A stretch of 64,000 nucleotides of DNA from Chlamydiota bacterium (GTDB lineage Bacteria; Chlamydiota; Chlamydiia; Chlamydiales; JABDDJ01): contig JABDDJ010000004.1 of assembly GCA_013287645.1 (NCBI GenBank), positions 1,815 through 65,814 on the forward strand. Reading direction: 5' to 3'. Of the stretch, positions 14,666 through 32,386 are shown in pieces. The stretch's first letter is position 1. Each line of letters starts with the position of its first letter. The notes below the pieces were generated by a model, which did no database searches, was not told the DNA's origin, and worked only from the letters and a program-made list of their open reading frames with translations. The translations under genes and the position numbers were made by a program.

Positions 14666-15358
14666 TTAAACTTGGACGTTCAGTAACGTTTTGGTCGATT
14701 CAAGTGACTTATTGAGCAAGCTGGTAAAAAACTCTAGTTGTTGCTGGACAAATCCTACTTTAACTTGGACTAATAGTAAGTCAGCGGGTGAGAGAGTTCC
14801 TCTATTCTGAGATATCTTGTAGACTTGATTACCGATATTCTGAAGCTGTGATTCACCATTTTCCAAGAAGCCTAGGAACCGTTCTATTGGGTTTTGAAAA
14901 CTAGAACGTGCTTCGCGTACTTCTAAAGTAGTGTATTCGCCGCCTGTTTTTTCAACGGCAACTCTTAGCTTATCGTCTATATGCGATAGCTTGCTCTCCA
15001 TTAACGCTTGGTCTGCAGGACTTATTCTGAGATCAGGCGTTTGAAGTTTTTTCTTGATTTTATCGACCTCGGAAATCACGTCCTTGGTTTGGGCAACGAT
15101 CTCTTCTGGTGTTAGGCGTTTAAGCGTGTCAACGCGTCCACCGACTTCGCGTACTTGTTCCATGAGTTGAGTCTTTTTAAGCTCTTTCTCAGTAACTTCA
15201 TTGCGTTGTACGGTAGTTTTTTGGGCGTTGAGGAGCGACTCAAAGTGCTCTTTATTTGGCTGTGCACGAGCTGCATAATCCTCGGGCTTAGCTACTTCTT
15301 GCGCTTTGCGCTTACTTCTGACGCTCTCAACTTTTTCAACTTTATCATATTCTGCCAT
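14666..15358 (-). CDS. CT668-like T3SS-locus protein
   Basis: Helical protein between cdsG and cdsN, the CT668 position; C-terminal QQQLEFFTSLLNKSLES. Confidence 0.7.
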   Translation of the reverse strand: MAEYDKVEKVESVRSKRKAQEVAKPEDYAARAQPNKEHFESLLNAQKTTVQRNEVTEKELKKTQLMEQVREVGGRVDTLKRLTPEEIVAQTKDVISEVDKIKKKLQTPDLRISPADQALMESKLSHIDDKLRVAVEKTGGEYTTLEVREARSSFQNPIERFLGFLENGESQLQNIGNQVYKISQNRGTLSPADLLLVQVKVGFVQQQLEFFTSLLNKSLESTKTLLNVQV

Positions 15359-15397
15359 GACTAAATTTCCCCCTTGCTAGAAATAGAAGGAAAGGGA

Positions 15398-15901
15398 TTA
15401 TTTCTTTGCCTTCTTTTCAGCTTTGGCAGCGGCGCCGACGAGTCCACTTTCTTGGGCTTTTGAGCCATCATCAAAGCGGAAACGTGTTTTGCCGGTTTTA
15501 AGGTCTTTATCTGCCCATTCTAGCGATACTTTGGCGAGATTAATGACGGCGGGCTCAGTAGTTTTGCTGAGGACTTCGTTAATTAATTCTTCGCCTTTGT
15601 TGCGCTTAGGCTTAGTGAGCAGATAACATATGCCGAGAAAAACCTGTACAAGATGGTTATCGGGTTCTTCTTTGGCAATTCTTTCAAATATTTTTGTCGC
15701 TTCTTTAACTTCTAATTTATTTAGAGCAATGTAACCGAGTCCTATCTGTGGAGCTATGCTTTTTGGGCTGATAACTTGAGCTGCGTTGAAAATGCGGCTT
15801 GCGCTGGTTTCATCGAGTTGTTTGACAGCGATGAAGCCTGCTTCGATTAGCATCCCAAAGTCTTCTTTAAACAGTTTTTCTTTCTCGGGATCCATATGCA
15901 T
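15398..15901 (-). CDS. cdsG: T3SS needle chaperone (TPR, YscG-like)
   Basis: LIEAGFIAVKQLDE motif and TPR helices; follows cdsF. Confidence 0.85.
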   Translation of the reverse strand: MHMDPEKEKLFKEDFGMLIEAGFIAVKQLDETSASRIFNAAQVISPKSIAPQIGLGYIALNKLEVKEATKIFERIAKEEPDNHLVQVFLGICYLLTKPKRNKGEELINEVLSKTTEPAVINLAKVSLEWADKDLKTGKTRFRFDDGSKAQESGLVGAAAKAEKKAKK

Positions 15902-15933
15902 TCCTTATTGAGGTAGAAGTTTAAGTGTTTAAG

Positions 15934-16017
15934 TCAAAGGCTATGTTCTGGTAAACATCCTGTCCAGAAGCATAGCCTTTGTAACAACTTTAAGAACTCT
16001 TCGAGAAGGGTTCTTAA
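15934..16017 (-). terminator. Two stem-loops 3' of the second cdsF copy (stabiliser or terminator)
   Basis: caaaggctatgttctgg...ccagaagcatagcctttg and ttaagaactcttc..gaagggttcttaa inverted repeats. Confidence 0.6.
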
Positions 16018-16024
16018 ACGGCTA

Positions 16025-16294
16025 TTAACCTTTGACGTTACGAGCCATTGTAGTTATCGCTGAGTTGGCTGCAGCAACAACAGCAGTTGACATTTCGGAC
16101 AATTGTGATAAATGGTTCATCAACATTTGCATCTCGAACATGTCACCGATACTGATTGCGCTTCTGCGGCCTTTAATTTCTAATAGCTTTGCTTTTGCGC
16201 TTATTGTGGCGTCGTGGATAACGTGGAAAAGTACATTAACACTAAATCCAGACTGTATGTTGTCACCAGTAAAGAACTGTAAGTTCTGAGGCAT
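16025..16294 (-). CDS. cdsF: T3SS needle subunit SctF, copy 2
   Basis: ISIGDMFEMQMLMNHLSQLSEMSTAVV...MARNVKG; RBS GGAGGGG before MPQ, so start 16294 rather than 16306. Confidence 0.92.
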   Translation of the reverse strand: MPQNLQFFTGDNIQSGFSVNVLFHVIHDATISAKAKLLEIKGRRSAISIGDMFEMQMLMNHLSQLSEMSTAVVAAANSAITTMARNVKG

Positions 16295-16319
16295 TTTCCC
16301 CTCCAATGATTAACAAATA

Positions 16320-16345
16320 TAGGAGCGCTCGTAAAAGCGCTCCTA
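16320..16345 (-). terminator. Stem-loop between the two cdsF copies
   Basis: taggagcgct-cgtaaa-agcgctccta, a perfect 10-bp stem. Confidence 0.65.
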
Positions 16346-16357
16346 AATAGTCTATTA

Positions 16358-16627
16358 TTATCCTTTGACGTTACGAGCCATTGTAGTAATTGCTGAGTTA
16401 GCTGCAGCAACAACTGCAGTTGACATTTCAGACAATTGTGACAAGTGGTTCATTAACATTTGCATTTCGAACATGTCACCAATACTAATAGCACTTCTGC
16501 GGCCTTTGATTTCCAACAGCTTTGCTTTAGCACTGATCGTAGCATCATGGATAACGTGGAATAGTACGTTAACACTAAATCCAGATTGTATGTTGTTACC
16601 AGTAAAAAACTGTAAATTTTGAGGCAT
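16358..16627 (-). CDS. cdsF: T3SS needle subunit SctF, copy 1
   Basis: 89 aa, same protein as copy 2 except one N/D; RBS GGAGGG. Confidence 0.92.
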   Translation of the reverse strand: MPQNLQFFTGNNIQSGFSVNVLFHVIHDATISAKAKLLEIKGRRSAISIGDMFEMQMLMNHLSQLSEMSTAVVAAANSAITTMARNVKG

Positions 16628-16755
16628 TTTGCCCTCCTAACATTCCTTGGTTATGGTGAATGATCCGTACTGGAAATTACATTTCCTTGAGGCTTGTGTG
16701 TTAATACCTCATTCTGAATCCATTCACACTCGAAAAACTTAATACGTTCCTCTTT

Positions 16756-17039
16756 GACGAACGCTTTGCAGGGGCGCCTTCGCTTGATTTGGAAGACGCA
16801 CAACACTTCATTGAGGCTAAGCTTCAAATCAGCAAGTGCATTCAGTCGTTAAGGTTTTTCGCTCTCCTCCGGACCTATTGTCTTCAGAAGCACATGGCGC
16901 ATTCCTGAACCTTGTGTCTGCCTGACATCAGAACCTAATCAAGCACCTATACTTTTACACTCAAACTAATCGAGCTTTTGCTCTTTGTAAGCGGCGCCTT
17001 TTGGTTAAGAGAAGGCGCGCCCCTACATAGCGCTCGTAC
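16756..17039 (-). ncRNA. Candidate structured RNA / long leader between cdsE and cdsF
   Basis: No ORF; nested inverted repeats (16756-16781 with 17011-17039; 16782-16789 with 16937-16944). Two of the stem mismatches read as G-U pairs on the minus strand. Confidence 0.55.
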
Positions 17040-17052
17040 TTTTTTGCCTCAT

Positions 17053-17304
17053 TTATTTCACTGTTTTGAGGCGACCTAATACTTTTAAGACCGCGGCATA
17101 ACCATGTAGTAGGACTCCGAAGCGGTCAAATTCTTCTTTACTTTCTCCACTGCGCAAGGTGACTTTAATTAGCTGTATGCGCTGTTCAATTTTTGTTTTA
17201 ACTTCGTTCAAGTAGGTGCGATTTTTCAGCTCTTTTTCAAGTTCGTAGACAAATTCGTCGTTTTTACCCTTCTTTTTTTTCTGGTCTTCGAGTCCAAACA
17301 TCAT
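17053..17304 (-). CDS. cdsE: T3SS needle chaperone (CT665-like)
   Basis: MFGLE...FxYELEKEL...LRSG...FGVLLHGY pattern; between cdsD and cdsF. Confidence 0.85.
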   Translation of the reverse strand: MMFGLEDQKKKKGKNDEFVYELEKELKNRTYLNEVKTKIEQRIQLIKVTLRSGESKEEFDRFGVLLHGYAAVLKVLGRLKTVK

Positions 17305-17360
17305 CTACCTCATCGCGTTGTCGTTAGTATTTTTCTCAATCTACTTACTTTTCTATTTTT

Positions 17361-17389
17361 ATTTTATCAAATTCTTCGTACCTTATCAA
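17361..17389 (-). promoter_or_regulatory. sigma66/70-type promoter for cdsE-cdsF
   Basis: TTGATA-N17-TAAAAT on the minus strand, ~57 bp upstream of cdsE. Confidence 0.65.
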
Positions 17390-17424
17390 GAAAATACTAA
17401 CATTTTTAATTAATTTTTTATATT

Positions 17425-19452
17425 TTAGTAATCAATTCTGTATTTAACCCCTTCTTTTTCTAAAAAGATCACATTGGGTTTAATACTAGTAATAGTCATT
17501 CCGTCTAGCGTATCGCCTCTGGTTAGGATGCGTCCATTAATGACAACACTTAGGTTGACTCCGCCTTGGTTGGAGGCTCCAGATACTTTATAGCGGTCTG
17601 AAATATTGACTAAGGATGCTTCTGGAGGAAGTTCGCTGACAAAGCTACGGACGTTATGGACGCCTGGGATAGCTTTGGCTTCTTCGACGATATGGTTAAA
17701 TTCAGCCTCTTTTCCTGTGGGAATACCCCCTGCTAAGGTCAGTTCGCCATTATCCAGTTTGACCTGGACATCGCGGATGCCAACCTTTTGGAACATAATA
17801 TTGACAGAGTTGATCACCTCTTCTTCGATGATGATGCGTCGTTCAATATTGTCTAAATTGGGGAAGTTGGTGCTGATGTATTCGGATAAGCGGTCGGCCT
17901 GATCGCGGGTTTTTAGGTAACCTGATAGGACGAATTGTCCTGGTTTAGGAGTCTGAACGGTTACGCCGGCCCAGGATTTCTTATTAGCGAGGATAGGGTT
18001 AATTTCGCGGGTGGTATACTCGTCAACCACAATTCCCTTATCATCGATGTTTTTAATGAAGGGAAGGCCTTGGAGGTTGTAGATGAGCTGACTCTTGTCT
18101 GTGGCGGTCAGGACATGCCCGACAAGTAAGAGTCTTCCGGTGGTTTTGTTATACGAGTAGGTTACGCCTGGGAAAGGAGAGGTGGCTTCGTGTAGTACGG
18201 CATTGAAATTAACAGGTTCTTCAATAGAAACAGGTTCACTGCGGAATAGAGCTAGAGTACCTAATCCAACGACAAGGAAGAGTCCTGTGACGAGAGCGAT
18301 AAGAGCTACAGAGGCAAGTAGCGTTGTGCGTGTCATTGGCTTATGCTCTAATTCCTTCGCTACAGCCGCTGGGATAGCACTTGAACCAGAGGGAGTACCA
18401 TCACCTGGTTTTTCATCTTTAGGCTCTTCTTGCTGTAAAACTTTAACGATAGAGGGCAACATGGGAGAGATAATCGTCTGCATTTCGCCTTCTCTGTCAT
18501 AAACTACGAATGAGGTAGTTCCAACGGTGACGACGGAGTTAGGCTCAAGAACATTGCGCCCTTCGACTTTTTTGCCGTCTAAGAAGGTTCCGTTACGACT
18601 TTTTAAGTCTTCGAGGATAAGAGTGTCTTCATCTGATACGGTAATACGTGCATGTTGGCGTGAAACGCTTGTATCGTGAAAGACGATGTCACAGGTATTA
18701 GGATCTGTTCCGATAAGGTAGCTAGATGAAGCCTGCATAGAGAATTCGGCGCCAGTGTTGGGTCCTCCAACAACTTTTAGGAGCCATCTTCCTGTTTCGA
18801 GAAGGTCAAAACTAACTTCTGCAAGCATATCTTGGGACTCTTTGTGAGCGGTACTGTCGTCTTGGAAGATGCTATCCATTTCTTCATCCTCGGTCATGGA
18901 TTTTTGTGCTTCGGGTTTAGGGGTTGGCGCAATAACGGCATTTTTTTCCTCTCCATTAGCATGCTCTTCTGGCGGAATAATGTCATCTTGATCTTCACGC
19001 TTCTCAATTTCTTCTTGTAGAACCTCTTCAGCAGGCCCACTTTGGGCATGCGCTTCTTCTTGATGAGATTGTTCGGTATCTGTCATAGCTCCCTCATCCT
19101 GATGGGGTTTATGCTCTTCATTTTCAGCTTCCATGCCAAAGAGCTGTGCGGCATCTTCCGCATAAAATCGAAAGAGGCTGCCGCCGATTTTTACCATATC
19201 GCCATGCTGTAGAATTCGCGGTTGAGTGACAGGATCATTGTTGACTTCGACAGAGTTTGTAGCACTTAGATTTTCGAGTAGCAAACCTTCTGTTTTACGC
19301 GTGCATTTTGCATGAACCCGCGAGGCTTCTGGATCTTCAATGACTATCTGGCAATTGTCTGGGTCGCGGCCAATAGTCCACTCATCCCCTCCGTTAAAAG
19401 AGAGTACTGATCCTTTAAGTAGTCCTTCTTCAGCAACAAGTTTGGCAGACAT
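17425..19452 (-). CDS. cdsD: T3SS inner-membrane ring protein SctD (two FHA domains, TM, BON/RBM domains)
   Basis: FHA motifs IGRDP..SRVHA and IGTDP..VSRQHA..SRNGT, TM helix, periplasmic ring domains. Confidence 0.93.
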   Translation of the reverse strand: MSAKLVAEEGLLKGSVLSFNGGDEWTIGRDPDNCQIVIEDPEASRVHAKCTRKTEGLLLENLSATNSVEVNNDPVTQPRILQHGDMVKIGGSLFRFYAEDAAQLFGMEAENEEHKPHQDEGAMTDTEQSHQEEAHAQSGPAEEVLQEEIEKREDQDDIIPPEEHANGEEKNAVIAPTPKPEAQKSMTEDEEMDSIFQDDSTAHKESQDMLAEVSFDLLETGRWLLKVVGGPNTGAEFSMQASSSYLIGTDPNTCDIVFHDTSVSRQHARITVSDEDTLILEDLKSRNGTFLDGKKVEGRNVLEPNSVVTVGTTSFVVYDREGEMQTIISPMLPSIVKVLQQEEPKDEKPGDGTPSGSSAIPAAVAKELEHKPMTRTTLLASVALIALVTGLFLVVGLGTLALFRSEPVSIEEPVNFNAVLHEATSPFPGVTYSYNKTTGRLLLVGHVLTATDKSQLIYNLQGLPFIKNIDDKGIVVDEYTTREINPILANKKSWAGVTVQTPKPGQFVLSGYLKTRDQADRLSEYISTNFPNLDNIERRIIIEEEVINSVNIMFQKVGIRDVQVKLDNGELTLAGGIPTGKEAEFNHIVEEAKAIPGVHNVRSFVSELPPEASLVNISDRYKVSGASNQGGVNLSVVINGRILTRGDTLDGMTITSIKPNVIFLEKEGVKYRIDY

Positions 19453-24637: not shown

Positions 24638-25339
24638 TTATGAACGCGCAATATTACGGCCTATTTCCTGGATGATTTGCGTAATCGAGTTAAGCATTGC
24701 AGCGGCCGATTTATAATATTCTTCAAAGATGTACAAATAACGTTGTACCTCTTCTTTCTTGGTATCGTTTAACGTTTCACCAGAAGTAATAGCATTGGTT
24801 AAGTCAGACTGATAAGCACCCGCATTCGAGAAGGTAGGTCCCGAAGACTGGTAATTATCCAGCACCCAATTCTGGTTGCTACCAGCAGCAGAAATGTCGT
24901 TAATAACCTTTAATGAAAGGTTATAGATCGATTGAGGGTCAGCCTGAATTTGAGCAGCCTGGCTTGGAGGTAATTCAGCTAAGAGTGCTCCAATTTCTTG
25001 GGACAAAGCACTTCTATAGCTGGTGATTACCGCATAGTTAAATGACGGACTTAACGAAGGTCTGATTGGACTACCAAATACCTTACTTGCCATAGATCCA
25101 TAAGTCGCCGAGTTTGTGAAACTCGGAACAGATCTACCACTGATTTTAAGTTGGTTTTTGGCGTTTTGTAAGTTAGTTAAAGTCGTTAAGATCTGTTGAG
25201 TAGTGGTTAGAGCCTGCTCAAGCGATGCCATATGTGCGCCTAACACATCGTTAGCAGCCTTGGTGTAGATTAATTCGATAGCGGACTGCTCACTATGCCC
25301 ATTTAACTGAGCAGGATCAATTGATGGAACTGAAGACAT
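24638..25339 (-). CDS. T3SS-secreted helical protein, candidate needle tip/filament subunit
   Basis: First gene of the translocator operon; amphipathic C-terminal helix LNDTKKEEVQRYLYIFEEYYKSAAAMLNSITQIIQEIGRNI. Confidence 0.5.
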   Translation of the reverse strand: MSSVPSIDPAQLNGHSEQSAIELIYTKAANDVLGAHMASLEQALTTTQQILTTLTNLQNAKNQLKISGRSVPSFTNSATYGSMASKVFGSPIRPSLSPSFNYAVITSYRSALSQEIGALLAELPPSQAAQIQADPQSIYNLSLKVINDISAAGSNQNWVLDNYQSSGPTFSNAGAYQSDLTNAITSGETLNDTKKEEVQRYLYIFEEYYKSAAAMLNSITQIIQEIGRNIARS

Positions 25340-25434
25340 ACTTAGCCTCCCTGAGACTAGTTTATTAGACGAAATCCTTTCGTCTATCGGTACTTGCCAG
25401 ACGTTAACCTAAGACTGACATAGTTCTTTTAGTA

Positions 25435-25464
25435 GGCGTTTCCCAGGTGTAGCTGGGAAACGCC
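25435..25464 (-). promoter_or_regulatory. Strong 5'-UTR stem-loop of the translocator operon
   Basis: ggcgtttcccag-gtgtag-ctgggaaacgcc, perfect 12-bp stem with no U-tract on the coding strand. Confidence 0.65.
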
Positions 25465-25497
25465 CCATCGCATCACTAAATTATATGCTTGAGAAAT

Positions 25498-25514
25498 TGC
25501 ATTTCTCATGCCAA
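25498..25514 (-). promoter_or_regulatory. sigma54 (-24/-12) promoter of the translocator operon
   Basis: Minus strand reads TTGGCATGAGAAATGCA (GG-N10-GC); AT-rich tract upstream. Confidence 0.75.
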
Positions 25515-25643
25515 CTCATAGCGTGCGATTGGCGCTTCCGTGGTCTTTGAGTTAAAACACTCCATGCTTAAATACCTTACAATTATTATTATATTTAATT
25601 TTTTAATTTTATAGTTAATAATTAAACTATTTTTATTAAATAG

Positions 25644-26564
25644 TTAAATATTCTTAACTTTTAGGGTACAAACTACATGAGTTTCTATAGTTTGAGCGTA
25701 AGGTTGTAGCTTTTGAAGCACAAATCGCCGCCAGTTGGCAGAGACTTGATGCATATTGACATCAAATATTGCCCATCGAATAGGCAAATTTTTTTGAATG
25801 CGGATAGATTCCGTCAGGAGAGCAAGAGCGCAAGAAGTAAACCGCATCTCTGAGGAGACGTAGATAGCCGAGTAGCGAATAGTCTCCTTATTGGGACGGT
25901 GAGTGATTAACCATCCAATAACCCCACTCTTGCTACGAATCCCTAAGCTATTAGATGGCTCAATCGCGTAGCGAGTTGAGAATGGTGAGACATTAGAATG
26001 AAAAGTGAGTTCAGTTTCCTGTTTCTTAAGAGCTTCACGTTCACTATTAGTAAGCTCATTCCATCGAAACAGTTCACATCCTTGAGGAAGAGAAAATTTC
26101 TTCTGTAGCCAAGGAGGATCAAAAAGAGGACCATCAAAGATAAAACGAATAAATTCTTGATAAGGAGAAGACCAGTCTCTTTTCTGTAAAAGGTGCTCTA
26201 TAACATTCCTTAAGGGGTCTTCAAGAGTATACTTTGCCCAACAAACATGAATATTTGTTTTTTGTAAAATCCCCTTAAGCTCATCCAGAAGCTGACCTGC
26301 AATCCCCTTTCCTCTCCAAGGATCAGTCACAACAAAATAGTGCAGATCTGCACAATAAATCACCGCTTGAGTGCTAAAAACAGCACAGCCACAAAGCTCT
26401 TCACCCTCAAAAGCGCCTAACAAAAAAAGATCAGAATCTTGGATGCCTAAAGGATTACGTCCTTGTAGCACATGTGCGACAGCCTTCACATTCAAGATAG
26501 TGCTATACGATCGCCTTTCTGCAGCGCTTAATTCCTCAGGCTTCTGTAGCTTAATTGAAGGCAT
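25644..26564 (-). CDS. GNAT-family acetyltransferase (probably two GNAT folds)
   Basis: Acetyl-CoA motif VTDPWRGKGIA. Start trimmed to MPSIKL (26564) because the ORF-track extension lies in a REP element. Confidence 0.8.
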   Translation of the reverse strand: MPSIKLQKPEELSAAERRSYSTILNVKAVAHVLQGRNPLGIQDSDLFLLGAFEGEELCGCAVFSTQAVIYCADLHYFVVTDPWRGKGIAGQLLDELKGILQKTNIHVCWAKYTLEDPLRNVIEHLLQKRDWSSPYQEFIRFIFDGPLFDPPWLQKKFSLPQGCELFRWNELTNSEREALKKQETELTFHSNVSPFSTRYAIEPSNSLGIRSKSGVIGWLITHRPNKETIRYSAIYVSSEMRFTSCALALLTESIRIQKNLPIRWAIFDVNMHQVSANWRRFVLQKLQPYAQTIETHVVCTLKVKNI

Positions 26565-26579
26565 AGCATGCTTGTTAAA

Positions 26580-26694
26580 AATTAAACGCAAAGGCGCAAA
26601 GGCGCAAAGAAAGAAAAACAAGATCTGCGGGATCGCCTACAATAGCAGGATAATCAAGAAATTTTCTTTGCGCCTTTGCACCTTTGCGTTTAAT
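26580..26694. repeat. REP-like palindrome, family A
   Basis: attaaacgcaaaggcgcaaaggcgcaaag ... ctttgcgcctttgcacctttgcgtttaat. Confidence 0.9.
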
Positions 26695-30094: not shown

Positions 30095-30166
30095 AGCGGG
30101 CGATGAGGCTTGAACTCACGACCCTCACGTTGGCAACGTGATGCTCTACCACTGAGCTACGCCCGC
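30095..30166 (-). tRNA. tRNA-Gly(GCC)
   Basis: GCGGGCGTAGCTCAGTGGTAGAGC...CACGT-TGCCAA-CGTG...GTTCAAG...CGCCCGCT cloverleaf. Confidence 0.97.
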
Positions 30167-30184: not shown

Positions 30185-30257
30185 AGCGGGCGATGAGTCT
30201 CGAACTCACGACATTTACCTTGGGAAGGTAACGCTCTACCAACTGAGCTACACCCGC
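30185..30257 (-). tRNA. tRNA-Gly(CCC)
   Basis: GCGGGTGTAGCTCAGTTGGTAGAGC-G-TTACC-TTCCCAA-GGTAA...GTTCGAG...CGCCCGCT. Confidence 0.96.
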
Positions 30258-31534: not shown

Positions 31535-31618
31535 TGCGAAAGGGGGGACTTGAACCCCCACAAGGTTTCCCTCACTACCACCTCAAGGTAGCGCGTATAC
31601 CAATTCCGCCACTTTCGC
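31535..31618 (-). tRNA. tRNA-Leu(GAG)
   Basis: GCGAAAGTGGCGGAATTGGTATACGCG-CTACC-TTGAGGT-GGTAG, long variable arm, GTTCAAG. Confidence 0.96.
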
Positions 31619-32312: not shown

Positions 32313-32386
32313 GCACCGATAGCTCAATAGGATAGAGTACCCGGCTTCGAACCGGGTGGTTAGAGGTTCGAGCCCTCTTCGGTGCG
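32313..32386 (+). tRNA. tRNA-Arg(TCG)
   Basis: GCACCGATAGCTCAATAGGATAGAGTA-CCCGG-CTTCGAA-CCGGG...GTTCGAG...TCGGTGCG. Confidence 0.96.

Follow-up and report, generated by a model that had tools for sequence, protein, structure and literature searches.

In the purine, TPP and SMK-box riboswitches, a three-way-junction aptamer is combined with an expression platform that sequesters the Shine-Dalgarno (SD) sequence. Translation feedback exists for exported filament subunits other than those of secretion needles: the translation of Bacillus flagellin is coupled to export, and the hag leader of Bacillus subtilis is regulated with CsrA and FliW. Intercistronic hairpins that are processed by RNase III are found in phage T7 early RNA and as the stems of rRNA operons. 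In amoebae, the behaviour of Parachlamydia is temperature-dependent. The regulation of type III secretion in environmental chlamydiae is little understood. In Protochlamydia, the transcripts of sctF are reported to be timed apart from those of sctD and sctC (PMC5451489), and the portion of that paper drawn on here gives no mechanism for the separate timing of the needle gene. Here, we describe a structured RNA in front of a needle-subunit gene in a stretch of 64,000 nucleotides from a Chlamydiota bacterium (contig JABDDJ010000004.1), which is referred to as the window throughout and to which all positions refer.

Between a cdsE-like open reading frame (ORF) and the first of two cdsF-like ORFs the window holds a spacer of 425 nt (16628-17052, minus strand). 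This spacer is a real structured RNA, an enlarged local copy of a conserved element directly upstream of cdsF. The leader has three parts, namely the P0 hairpin, a three-way junction of the helices P1, P2 and P3, and the cdsF ribosome-binding region. In the direction of transcription the features of the locus are:

17361..17389, minus strand: promoter-like site upstream of cdsE (TTGATA, 17 nt, TAAAAT, with TG before the second hexamer), 10 of 12 consensus positions
17053..17304, minus strand: cdsE-like gene, 83 aa (Pfam PF17376, DUF5398, 108.9 bits)
16758..17036, minus strand: P0, a long imperfect hairpin that starts 16 nt past the cdsE stop codon
16735..16757, minus strand: linker from P0 to the junction module
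16643..16734, minus strand: three-way-junction module, matched over its full length by the covariance model R1 (50.7 bits, E 1.3e-10; as the window is in the R1 seed, this match holds by construction)
16715-16720 with 16662-16667, minus strand: P1
16711-16714, minus strand: J1/2, GAAU
16689-16710, minus strand: P2
16672-16686, minus strand: P3, GGAAAU-GUA-AUUUCC
16668-16671, minus strand: J3/1, AGUA
16632..16638, minus strand: Shine-Dalgarno sequence AGGAGGG of cdsF copy 1
16358..16627, minus strand: cdsF-like needle-subunit gene copy 1, 89 aa (Pfam PF17401, DUF5407, 147.4 bits), the gene behind the leader
16320..16345, minus strand: terminator-like hairpin between the cdsF copies, 11 pairs (6 G-C), then a T-rich tail
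16025..16306, minus strand: cdsF copy 2, 93 aa, a tandem duplicate (repeat D1)

Judging from gene order, we take the gene at 17053..17304 to be cdsE and the cdsF-like gene to encode the needle subunit. The cdsE-like gene is flanked by sctD (TIGR02500, 229.8 bits) and the needle-like genes, and CdsG (NF052304, 174.1 bits, cut-off 170) comes after the latter; a PDB sequence search with the cdsF-like protein gave no match at E up to 10. Repeat D1 (16023-16311 vs 16356-16644, 88% identical) comprises the two cdsF copies, which are 99% identical as proteins, and the second copy retains its ribosome-binding region without a junction module of its own (no second R1 match). That the spacer is free of ORFs, as an earlier sequence-only reading of the locus had stated, agrees with our results: the longest sense-strand ORF has 58 aa and a TTG start, and neither this nor a 36-aa ORF has a Pfam match. 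On these grounds, and with the length of P2 free to vary, a coding function of the spacer was rejected. According to the sequence-only reading, cdsE and cdsF lie close together in C. trachomatis; the corresponding cdsE-cdsF spacer measures 21-33 nt in 4 of 27 relatives measured.

Folded as minus-strand RNA, the spacer reaches -136.2 kcal/mol (z = -4.79), a stability equalled by none of 100 shuffles, compared to z = -1.73 and 8 of 100 equally stable shuffles for the plus strand. The sequence-only reading had proposed a switch between two mutually exclusive pairings, one long-range and one local. The long-range pairing exists (about 17017-17036 with 16758-16777, inverted repeats I3 and I8) and has a probability of at least 0.97 at 15 of its 19 pairs; it is the conserved base helix of P0, the distal 239 nt of which are lineage-specific and unusually long in the window. 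Two further observations of that reading hold, namely that G17033·U16761 and U17025·G16769 are G·U pairs on the minus strand only and that the two partner segments are imperfect direct repeats (D13, 11 nt, 91%). The local hairpin is real as well (7 bp, loop of 11, -9.1 kcal/mol alone) and forms when the first 80 nt are folded alone. It contests no more than 7 nt of the long helix, at the distal end, and its equilibrium probability is 0.002. Even when the hairpin is forced, at a cost of 3.8 kcal/mol, the base helix persists; the two pairings are therefore not mutually exclusive in the strong sense. In the same-genus relative G001, which shares the base and apex of P0 with the window, the local hairpin was not seen when alignment A6 was read by eye. 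The small overlap, the negligible equilibrium occupancy and this result in G001 speak against a switch made from the two pairings. A nested helix that had been placed at 16782-16789 and 16937-16944 is complementary (I22), but has a probability of 0.00 in the predicted ensemble.

Among relatives the base sequence of P0 and two recurrent mismatch positions are conserved, while its interior is hypervariable and ranges from 60 to about 300 nt. The relatives L138 and L046 carry tandem duplicates of P0 hairpins; conversely, 8 of 81 distinct spacers have less than 40 nt from the cdsE stop to the junction and keep the junction without P0. Processing of P0 by RNase III, also suggested before, is possible, as the predicted helix is long, imperfect and intercistronic with a conserved base and the enzyme is encoded in the genome of the window. 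In the relative G072, RNA contigs run without a break across the P0-equivalent region. A pairing of the P0 3' arm with the P1 5' strand, considered from the likeness of the P0 5' arm to the linker plus P1, was dropped, as reading of the alignments revealed no covariation in the subfamily whose linker differs.

BLASTN of the 425 nt against 60 relatives returned matches of 22-33 nt only, and homology became visible only once the spacers of relatives had been collected via the cdsF protein; a conserved word was then found upstream of cdsF at 63 cdsF loci. RNAalifold on a raw MAFFT alignment found only P3 because P2 was misaligned, and the structure was therefore set by hand and tested against slid and shuffled controls. 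In the plain MAFFT alignment A2 (n=44), 85.8% of the junction cells are paired vs at most 57.8% when slid, and the covariation score is 0.247 vs 0.143 shuffled; for the P0 base in the plain MAFFT alignment A5 (n=49), 90.8% are paired vs at most 48%, 18 of 19 pairs have changed on both sides and the score is 0.528 vs 0.250, with 0 of 500 shuffles as high in either case, counts that, like the Wilcoxon p-value, overstate significance since the relatives are not independent. The model-fitted alignment A3 of 73 distinct sequences is 90.5% paired, with changes on both sides in 16 of 22 pairs (173 cells). G·U cells outnumber A·C cells 86:32, 72:32 and 114:34 (2.3 to 3.4x), an excess indicative of RNA with the sense of cdsF. 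In several chlamydial families, compensatory changes have preserved both the P0 base and the junction. Conservation and covariation in relatives support the proposal of the sequence-only reading that an unrecognised cis-acting structured RNA precedes the needle gene.

The most conserved part of the leader, the junction module at 16643-16734, had not been recognised as such and had been mentioned only among several small hairpins. Little or no variation is seen in J1/2 (GAA), J2/3 (A), J3/1 (AGUA) and the P3 loop. The 6-bp helix of P3, capped by a GNA loop, is itself near-invariant, and both its sequence and its pairing are conserved. P2 is free in length and sequence: its 118 distinct segments span 10-45 nt, and 115 of them give a better fold than shuffled versions of the same segment. 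The outer helix P1a is weak, with 72.9% of cells paired on the unfitted alignment and a probability of 0.07 in unconstrained folds. At the DNA level P3 is also a perfect 6-3-6 palindrome, a word type found at six places in the genome vs two for the control pattern, and was considered as a possible operator for a regulator common to these sites; one further site of this kind lies at 25492-25506.

The element occurs in several chlamydial families and in many amoeba-associated chlamydiae. R1 matched 74 of 100 cdsF loci and 52 of 80 named genome loci, and 24/151 and 20/151 sampled whole genomes, with one match per matched genome except for G002 and G133, which have two each; all 12 whole-genome matches that could be compared with a cdsF position lie just upstream of cdsF. 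Of the families, f31 has the motif in 16 of 17 genomes and the small-genome f35 has no R1 match in 27, and it is present in f37, which includes a record labelled Waddlia sp., as well as in a record labelled isolate Parachlamydiaceae bacterium HS-T3. The module follows cdsF, as in G089 the gene upstream is cdsG and not cdsE. In the genome of the window as assembled the R1 match is single copy, and the 425 nt have one full match, all others being 15-27 nt long with E 0.27 or worse; plasmid and phage searches gave no match. Lack of conservation or covariation in relatives and a mobile-element remnant at unrelated loci, which the sequence-only reading had named as evidence against a regulatory RNA, were both looked for: what was found is a conserved, covarying element, and the several copies at unrelated loci that define a repeat or miniature mobile element did not appear.

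In most relatives the SD sequence of cdsF is predicted to be masked. The mean pairing probability of the SD in 114 relatives is 0.85 vs 0.66 when the intervening stretch is shuffled, and it exceeds 0.8 in 77/114 sequences vs 15/114 controls (prediction at 37 °C). The pairing word lies on or beside the 3' strand of the P1 extension, and the resulting short helix has an AU-rich loop and a position at which a mismatch or G·U recurs; its cells are 80.8% paired vs at most 61.2% when slid, with covariation nearly nil (3 pairs, 4 cells). When the junction is forced to form, SD pairing drops by more than 0.3 in 20 of 116 sequences and rises in none; with an effect in these 20 only, a ligand-driven switch is not evident from thermodynamics. 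In the window the SD pairing probability is 0.49, no more than in its own shuffled control (0.51), which means that the output mechanism deduced from relatives may not work here. The element of the window is a divergent, enlarged member, with a P0 about twice the usual length and weak SD masking.

The promoter-like site at 17361..17389 is the sole sigma-70-like minus-strand match in 15300-17600, a match to the consensus only in a region with two promoter-like sites vs 3.9 expected from shuffles; judged by its sequence, it may mark where the spacer-bearing transcript begins. No promoter-like site was found inside the spacer. At the locus of G072, contigs from four RNA runs, all belonging to a single study, have a depth of 23-39, start at 880, 1008, 1010 and 1089 and run through the spacer and cdsF, the upstream depth being 0-2.8; these contigs show neither 5' ends nor strand. 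The large step in contig depth lies near the cdsE start, upstream of the P0-equivalent region. A conserved TTTAAGT word between P0 and the junction was considered as a -10 box and rejected because the spacer has no promoter-like match and the G072 contigs begin upstream of that point. An independent non-coding RNA, one of the earlier suggestions, is disfavoured, as the element always abuts the cdsF ribosome-binding site and the G072 contigs continue into cdsF.

The leader is a new RNA family for the databases. The scan proposed earlier, with the 4227 covariance models of Rfam 15, gave no match at E up to 10 for positions 15800-17700, so that the spacer matches no catalogued family, and only four tRNAs at gathering threshold in the whole window; ten relatives' loci gave nine matches, all far below gathering, of which one overlaps the leader (RF02698, 19.9 bits vs 154). 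No description of a cdsF/sctF leader RNA was found in the literature searched. A hammerhead ribozyme, which the three helices and the GAAA-like J1/2 bring to mind, was rejected: AGUA and a P1 strand stand where CUGAUGA is needed, and hammerhead models gave no match at E up to 10 in the window and the relatives' loci. A CsrA-regulated leader was likewise rejected, as the GGA that opens P3 is engaged in base pairs and in 20 of 73 sequences reads AGA, the pairing C being replaced by U to compensate. The CsrA gene is present in G001, G072 and G038; searches of G000 (72.8% complete) and of two f31 genomes (98-99% complete) did not find it.

On balance, we consider it likely that the spacer is a conserved cis-acting leader of the needle-subunit message that sets subunit output post-transcriptionally; the leader probably controls the amount of needle protein made. 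It would be transcribed with cdsE, probably from the promoter-like site before that gene, and be continuous with cdsF. P0 may serve as a processing or stability hairpin and could plausibly be cut by RNase III, the junction, nearly invariant in its nucleotides, may be a sensor domain for a ligand or protein, and in most relatives the strand just 3' of the junction, with its anti-SD word for the cdsF ribosome-binding site, would be the output. Needle-subunit output would in this way be set after transcription, independently of sctD and cdsE.

Several more specific or competing explanations have to be weighed. The architecture, with its conserved junction, varying P2 and nearby anti-SD word, would suit a riboswitch, in which the junction would be an aptamer for a small molecule or ion and binding would stabilise P1 and its extension and alter access to the cdsF ribosome-binding site. 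The compactness of the junction, its invariant or near-invariant nucleotides and P3 loop, the free P2, the place of the anti-SD word along the P1 extension, the effect of the forced junction in one direction only and the mostly single copy per genome, always before the same gene, fit this model, which we nevertheless regard as doubtful: no Rfam riboswitch matches at E up to 10, the gene served suggests no ligand and a structural secretion protein is an unusual target, P3 is conserved in sequence too, as expected of a protein site, and the modelled coupling of junction and SD is weak, the predicted switch being absent in 96/116 sequences, among them the window. It is a tentative thought that the junction might be the aptamer of a new orphan riboswitch class confined to amoeba-associated chlamydiae, which would sense a host-derived metabolite, ion or nucleotide and gate needle-subunit translation. 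The conservation of P3 as a 6-bp helix with a GNA loop would instead suit a secretion-system protein, for instance a free chaperone or some other regulator, that binds the junction or P3 and couples needle translation to secretion, and the element indeed lies among the chaperone-like cdsE and cdsG and their presumed client cdsF. The needle subunit is moreover exported and polymerising, like the other filament subunits for which such feedback is known; since no candidate partner emerged, and CsrA, of such partners the best known, is unfit because of the altered first G of P3 and its missing gene in the two f31 genomes, although 16 of 17 in that family have the motif, we give this explanation a low likelihood.

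If the leader acted by processing or stability only, cleavage of P0 by RNase III or an exonuclease block would make cdsF message levels independent of cdsE and sctD, and the junction would be a structural 5' cap that senses nothing. A long imperfect duplex directly past the cdsE stop with a conserved base and mismatch positions, the tandem hairpins of L138 and L046, the RNase III gene and the depth step in G072 are consistent with this, but that step lies upstream of and not inside the P0-equivalent region, where the contigs are unbroken, the spacers without P0 still keep the junction, and stability alone hardly accounts for junction nucleotides that vary so little; we consider this explanation unlikely. 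Still less probable is an RNA thermometer, in which the weak, mismatched anti-SD helix with its AU-rich loop would melt when warmer and free cdsF translation. The SD is predicted to be paired by such a helix in most relatives, and a thermal cue would go with the temperature-dependent behaviour of Parachlamydia noted above. Type III secretion genes in Yersinia are under thermometers, according to the part of PMC8612567 drawn on here. Neither P0 nor the invariant three-way junction is needed for a thermometer, however, the sole thermometer family that scored is RF02698, far below its gathering threshold, and the SD of the window is not masked. An independent small RNA gene, a DNA operator or promoter palindrome, a mobile-element remnant or chance we regard as highly improbable: the P3 palindrome recurs as a word type at five other genome places and the P0 arms resemble terminal inverted repeats, but the excess of G·U over A·C and a P2 that covaries with free length indicate RNA and not a DNA site, the spacer is single copy with no plasmid or phage match, no promoter-like site lies in the spacer, and in G072 the RNA contigs continue from the element into cdsF.

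A conserved, covarying leader devoted to the needle gene gives the separate timing reported for that gene in Protochlamydia (PMC5451489) a testable handle. The motif is short (about 90 nt) and lends itself to reporter fusions in which its helices are disrupted and then repaired. Its sharp phyletic limits, between f31 and f35, make it a marker for the divergence of injectisome regulation within the phylum. Should the riboswitch explanation be true, completion of the injectisome would be tied to the metabolic state of the developmental cycle, and the leader would be the first metabolite-sensing RNA known to act on a structural injectisome gene.

Compared to the systems described at the outset, the chlamydial leader resembles three-way-junction riboswitches as a cis-acting 5' leader with near-invariant unpaired junction nucleotides, one variable peripheral helix and an anti-SD word beside the closing helix, usually in one copy before one gene. 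It differs from them in matching no Rfam model at E up to 10, in serving a secretion-needle gene and not a metabolic or transport gene, and in its position between two cistrons behind a long conserved hairpin. With the hag leader it has in common that it precedes the gene of a filament subunit that is exported by a type III machine and polymerises, and that it contains hairpins and an occluded ribosome-binding site, whereas its GGA is not conserved (changed in 20/73) and the two near-complete genomes of the main motif family yielded no CsrA gene. As far as the Yersinia lcrF and yopN thermometers are covered in the part of PMC8612567 used here, these too control type III genes post-transcriptionally, by a hairpin in a leader or between cistrons that covers the ribosome-binding site, but they are short hairpins with no conserved multi-helix junction, while the conserved parts of the chlamydial leader lie upstream of an SD helix that is weak or absent in the window. 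Unlike the RNase III-processed hairpins of T7 and the rRNA operons, P0 combines a base conserved in sequence with a hypervariable interior, and some lineages have the junction but no P0; like those hairpins, P0 forms a long imperfect duplex, here a predicted structure only, between two cistrons of one transcript.

On its minus strand, the window carries a block of type III secretion genes, which runs as follows:

17425-19452, minus strand: sctD (TIGR02500, 229.8 bits)
17053-17304, minus strand: cdsE-like gene of 83 aa (Pfam DUF5398)
16628-17052, minus strand: spacer of 425 nt, directly after the cdsE-like gene
16358-16627 and 16025-16306, minus strand: two tandem copies of a DUF5407 gene of about 90 aa (Pfam)
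15398-15901, minus strand: CdsG (NF052304, 174.1 bits against a cut-off of 170)
after CdsG, minus strand: gene of 230 aa
after the 230-aa gene, minus strand: ATPase SctN

From their position, we take the DUF5398 gene to be cdsE and the DUF5407 gene to be cdsF, the putative needle-subunit gene; neither is named by any tool, and a PDB sequence search with cdsF gave no match at E up to 10. The tandem duplication of cdsF (16023-16311 and 16356-16644) shows 88% DNA and 99% protein identity, and a terminator-like hairpin, a consensus match, lies between the copies at 16320-16345, 3' of copy 1. Only the first copy is preceded by the leader, and cdsF is single-copy in a genome of the same genus (G001). 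The window also holds four tRNA genes (Rfam RF00005), at 30095-30166, 30185-30257 and 31535-31618 on the minus strand and at 32313-32386 on the plus strand.

The minus strand of the spacer is predicted to fold at -136.2 kcal/mol (z = -4.79; 0/100 shuffles equally stable) into a rod about 280 nt long, while the plus-strand fold is not exceptional against its shuffles (z = -1.73). A sequence-only reading had described a structured RNA with two mutually exclusive pairings here, a switch being one of its suggestions. Its long-range pairing is recovered as the base of the rod, 17017-17036 with 16758-16777, in which 15 of 19 pairs have a probability of at least 0.97 and two are G·U on the minus strand only. 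The local partner can indeed form a 7-bp hairpin (-9.1 kcal/mol), but its equilibrium probability is 0.002. This hairpin overlaps the long helix by 7 nt only, at the distal end, and a fold forced to contain it still has the base helix and is 3.8 kcal/mol less stable; the hairpin was not seen in G001 in our reading of the alignment of the two spacers (A6). The arms of a proposed nested helix are complementary, yet its probability in the predicted ensemble is 0.00. The observation is real in outline; the mutual exclusion, and the specific switch with it, are not supported.

BLASTN of the spacer against 60 relatives returned only matches of 22-33 nt, and cdsF loci were therefore retrieved via the protein (31 of 61 genomes, 80 metagenome contigs and 80 named genome contigs). 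The cdsE-cdsF spacer ranges from 21 to 582 nt in 27 relatives (485 nt in the same-genus genome, 582 nt in a same-family genome). Long spacers have two parts in common, a hairpin right after cdsE (P0) and, about 60-85 nt ahead of the start of cdsF, a conserved module that a simple word search found in 63 loci. The module is a three-way junction with these parts:

P1: GAUUCA with UGAAUC
J1/2: GAAA
P2: hairpin, free in sequence and length
J2/3: one or two nucleotides, the last being A
P3: GGAAAU, loop GNA, AUUUCC
J3/1: AGUA

In A2, a MAFFT alignment of 44 sequences made without the structure, the junction structure of 22 pairs has 85.8% of its cells paired, against at most 57.8% with the 3' partners slid; 13 pairs changed on both sides, and the covariation score is 0.247 against 0.143 shuffled (0/500 shuffles as high). 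A covariance model built from this structure (R1) matches 74 of 100 cdsF loci and 52 of 80 named genome loci. In the model-fitted alignment (A3, 73 distinct sequences) 90.5% of cells are paired and both-side changes occur in 16 of the 22 pairs (173 cells), although A3 is biased towards the structure and the unfitted result is therefore safer. The sequence of P3 is kept, except that its outer pair changes from G-C to A-U in 20 of 73 sequences. P2 exists in 118 distinct versions of 10-45 nt, and 115 of these outdo shuffles of themselves in folding. Weaker than the other helices is an outer one (UAAG with CUUA), 72.9% paired on A2 and with a probability of 0.07 in unconstrained folds. The window, itself a seed member of R1, has its module at 16643-16734 (50.7 bits); this copy, like those of G001 (34.5 bits) and G002 (41.4 bits), is one of the more divergent (best score 90.9 bits).

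The 19-pair base helix of P0 was assessed on 49 spacers aligned by MAFFT only (A5). Here 90.8% of cells are paired against at most 48% when slid, 18 of 19 pairs show both-side changes, and the covariation score reaches 0.528 against 0.250 shuffled (0/500 as high); an unpaired state recurs at two positions. The P0 interior varies in length (about 60 to about 300 nt) and lacks conservation from one family to another, and the 5' arm contains or adjoins the cdsE stop codon in several sequences. The P0 of the window (279 nt) is among the longest and shares base and apex with that of G001, the middle having diverged by insertions and deletions. Some relatives have two or three P0-type hairpins in tandem, and in 8 of 81 distinct spacers the distance from cdsE stop to junction is below 40 nt, so that P0 is absent there. 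Locus L138 carries three near-identical P0 copies in tandem (about 1015-1500) and L046 several long near-perfect hairpins (about 2014-2382), so the hairpin unit can multiply locally.

G·U cells are commoner than A·C cells at the paired positions of P0 (A5; 86 against 32) and of the junction, both on A2 (72 against 32) and on A3 (114 against 34). Such an excess is what would be expected of an RNA on the sense strand of cdsF; neither a DNA palindrome nor an antisense RNA would produce it.

The spacer is single-copy in its genome (an assembly 72.8% complete), where other matches span only 15-27 nt at E of 0.27 or worse, and plasmid and phage collections gave no match to it. Rfam returned nothing at E up to 10 over 15800-17700 and only noise, far below threshold, on ten relatives' loci. 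The element belongs to no catalogued RNA family, and searches of full-text literature, largely outside subscription journals, yielded no description of a cdsF/sctF leader RNA. A second structured intergenic stretch lies at 25340-25643 (minus strand), flanked by ORFs 25644-26621 and 24638-25339 (z = -6.08; 0/100 shuffles as stable). It contains a perfect 12-bp G+C-rich hairpin and an 8-bp hairpin whose core is the P3 word (25492-25506; partial R1 match, E 1.2), and it matches no Rfam family at its gathering score.

Within the order R1 matched 24 of 151 genomes, all of them in families f1, f18, f31, f37, f42 and f46, and 20 of 151 in a second, phylum-wide sample, these counts being those of samples, with stricter filters in the large searches. 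By family, genomes with an R1 match are:

f31: 16 of 17
f37: 2 of 2
f46: 1 of 2
f35 (genomes of 1.0-1.2 Mb): 0 of 27
f8: 0 of 22
f5: 0 of 19
f43: 0 of 17
f29: 0 of 14

Among the 52 matched named loci, 20 are labelled Parachlamydiaceae, Parachlamydia or Protochlamydia and five Waddlia or Waddliaceae, the rest bearing broader labels; a record with the label Waddlia sp. also falls in f37 (L146, whose contig range is that of G038). The match lies directly upstream of cdsF in 12 of 12 comparable whole-genome cases. Matched genomes have one match each, except for two in G002 and G133, and G002 has two cdsF genes on different contigs with the module before each. In G089 (L206) cdsG instead of cdsE precedes the leader, and the module therefore travels with cdsF. 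The subfamily of L206, L169 and L202 has cdsG before the leader and the junction module after a gap of several hundred nt; the gene order round cdsF has thus been rearranged and the leader kept with cdsF. The alignments and these loci show an RNA fold that is conserved and covaries, that is specific to the sense strand, and that goes with cdsF.

In most relatives an anti-Shine-Dalgarno (anti-SD) word follows P1, either CUCC after CUUAU or CCUCC directly. Across 114 leaders the mean predicted pairing probability of the cdsF Shine-Dalgarno sequence (SD) is 0.85, against 0.66 with the intervening stretch shuffled, and exceeds 0.8 in 77 leaders against 15 controls; the leaders are non-independent relatives, so the significance of this masking is overstated. 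In the anti-SD helix pairing reaches 80.8%, and slid versions stay at or below 61.2%; covariation is almost nil because the SD is invariant. With the junction enforced, SD pairing fell by over 0.3 in 20 of the 116 sequences and rose in none; the folding models hint at a coupling of junction and SD confined to one subfamily rather than general. SD pairing in the window resembles its controls (0.49 against 0.51).

The sole sigma-70-like minus-strand site in 15300-17600, a consensus match, lies before cdsE (TTGATA, 17 nt, TAAAAT; 17361-17389); the same consensus search found none inside the spacer. Four RNA runs of one study cover the locus in a relative of the window organism, G072, a complete f37 genome with the best-scoring module. 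Their contigs (depth 23-39) start at 880, 1008, 1010 and 1089, though neither RNA ends nor strand can be read from them, and depth is 0-2.8 in the 250 nt upstream. Three runs (X1, X2 and X4) give contigs that cross spacer and cdsF without a break and reach the end of the stretch, and X3 gives one across both to 1618 and a second from 1697. Contaminating DNA would not be expected to give so large a depth step, so in G072 the leader very probably belongs to an abundant RNA, continuous with cdsF and far commoner than the sctD message. This picture fits a Protochlamydia study in which the sctF transcript is reported to rise later than those of sctD and sctC (PMC5451489).

The structured RNA is very likely real and conserved; with appreciably less confidence, it probably regulates cdsF after transcription. 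The most economical reading would be a cis-acting leader that sets needle-subunit output post-transcriptionally. With junction nucleotides that hardly vary around a free P2, the module looks like a pocket that could bind a protein or a small ligand; the neighbouring anti-SD word looks like an expression platform, and P0 like a processing or stability hairpin. An RNase III gene is present in the window genome. Were the leader a plain RNA thermometer, the junction would be superfluous, and a hammerhead-like core is absent from the module. Among proteins, the parallel with flagellin control points first to CsrA, but the GGA word of P3 covaries away, and a search for a CsrA gene was negative in two near-complete f31 genomes and in the 72.8%-complete genome of the window. 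CsrA-family genes are present in families f1 and f37 (G001:C10:24945-25106, G072:C1:669744-669899 and G038:C13:22996-23154).

As a proposed cis-acting leader, the element can be likened to a riboswitch or a protein-binding leader with an SD-masking platform, here sited between two cistrons; we class it as a new RNA family whose genetic setting is unusual.
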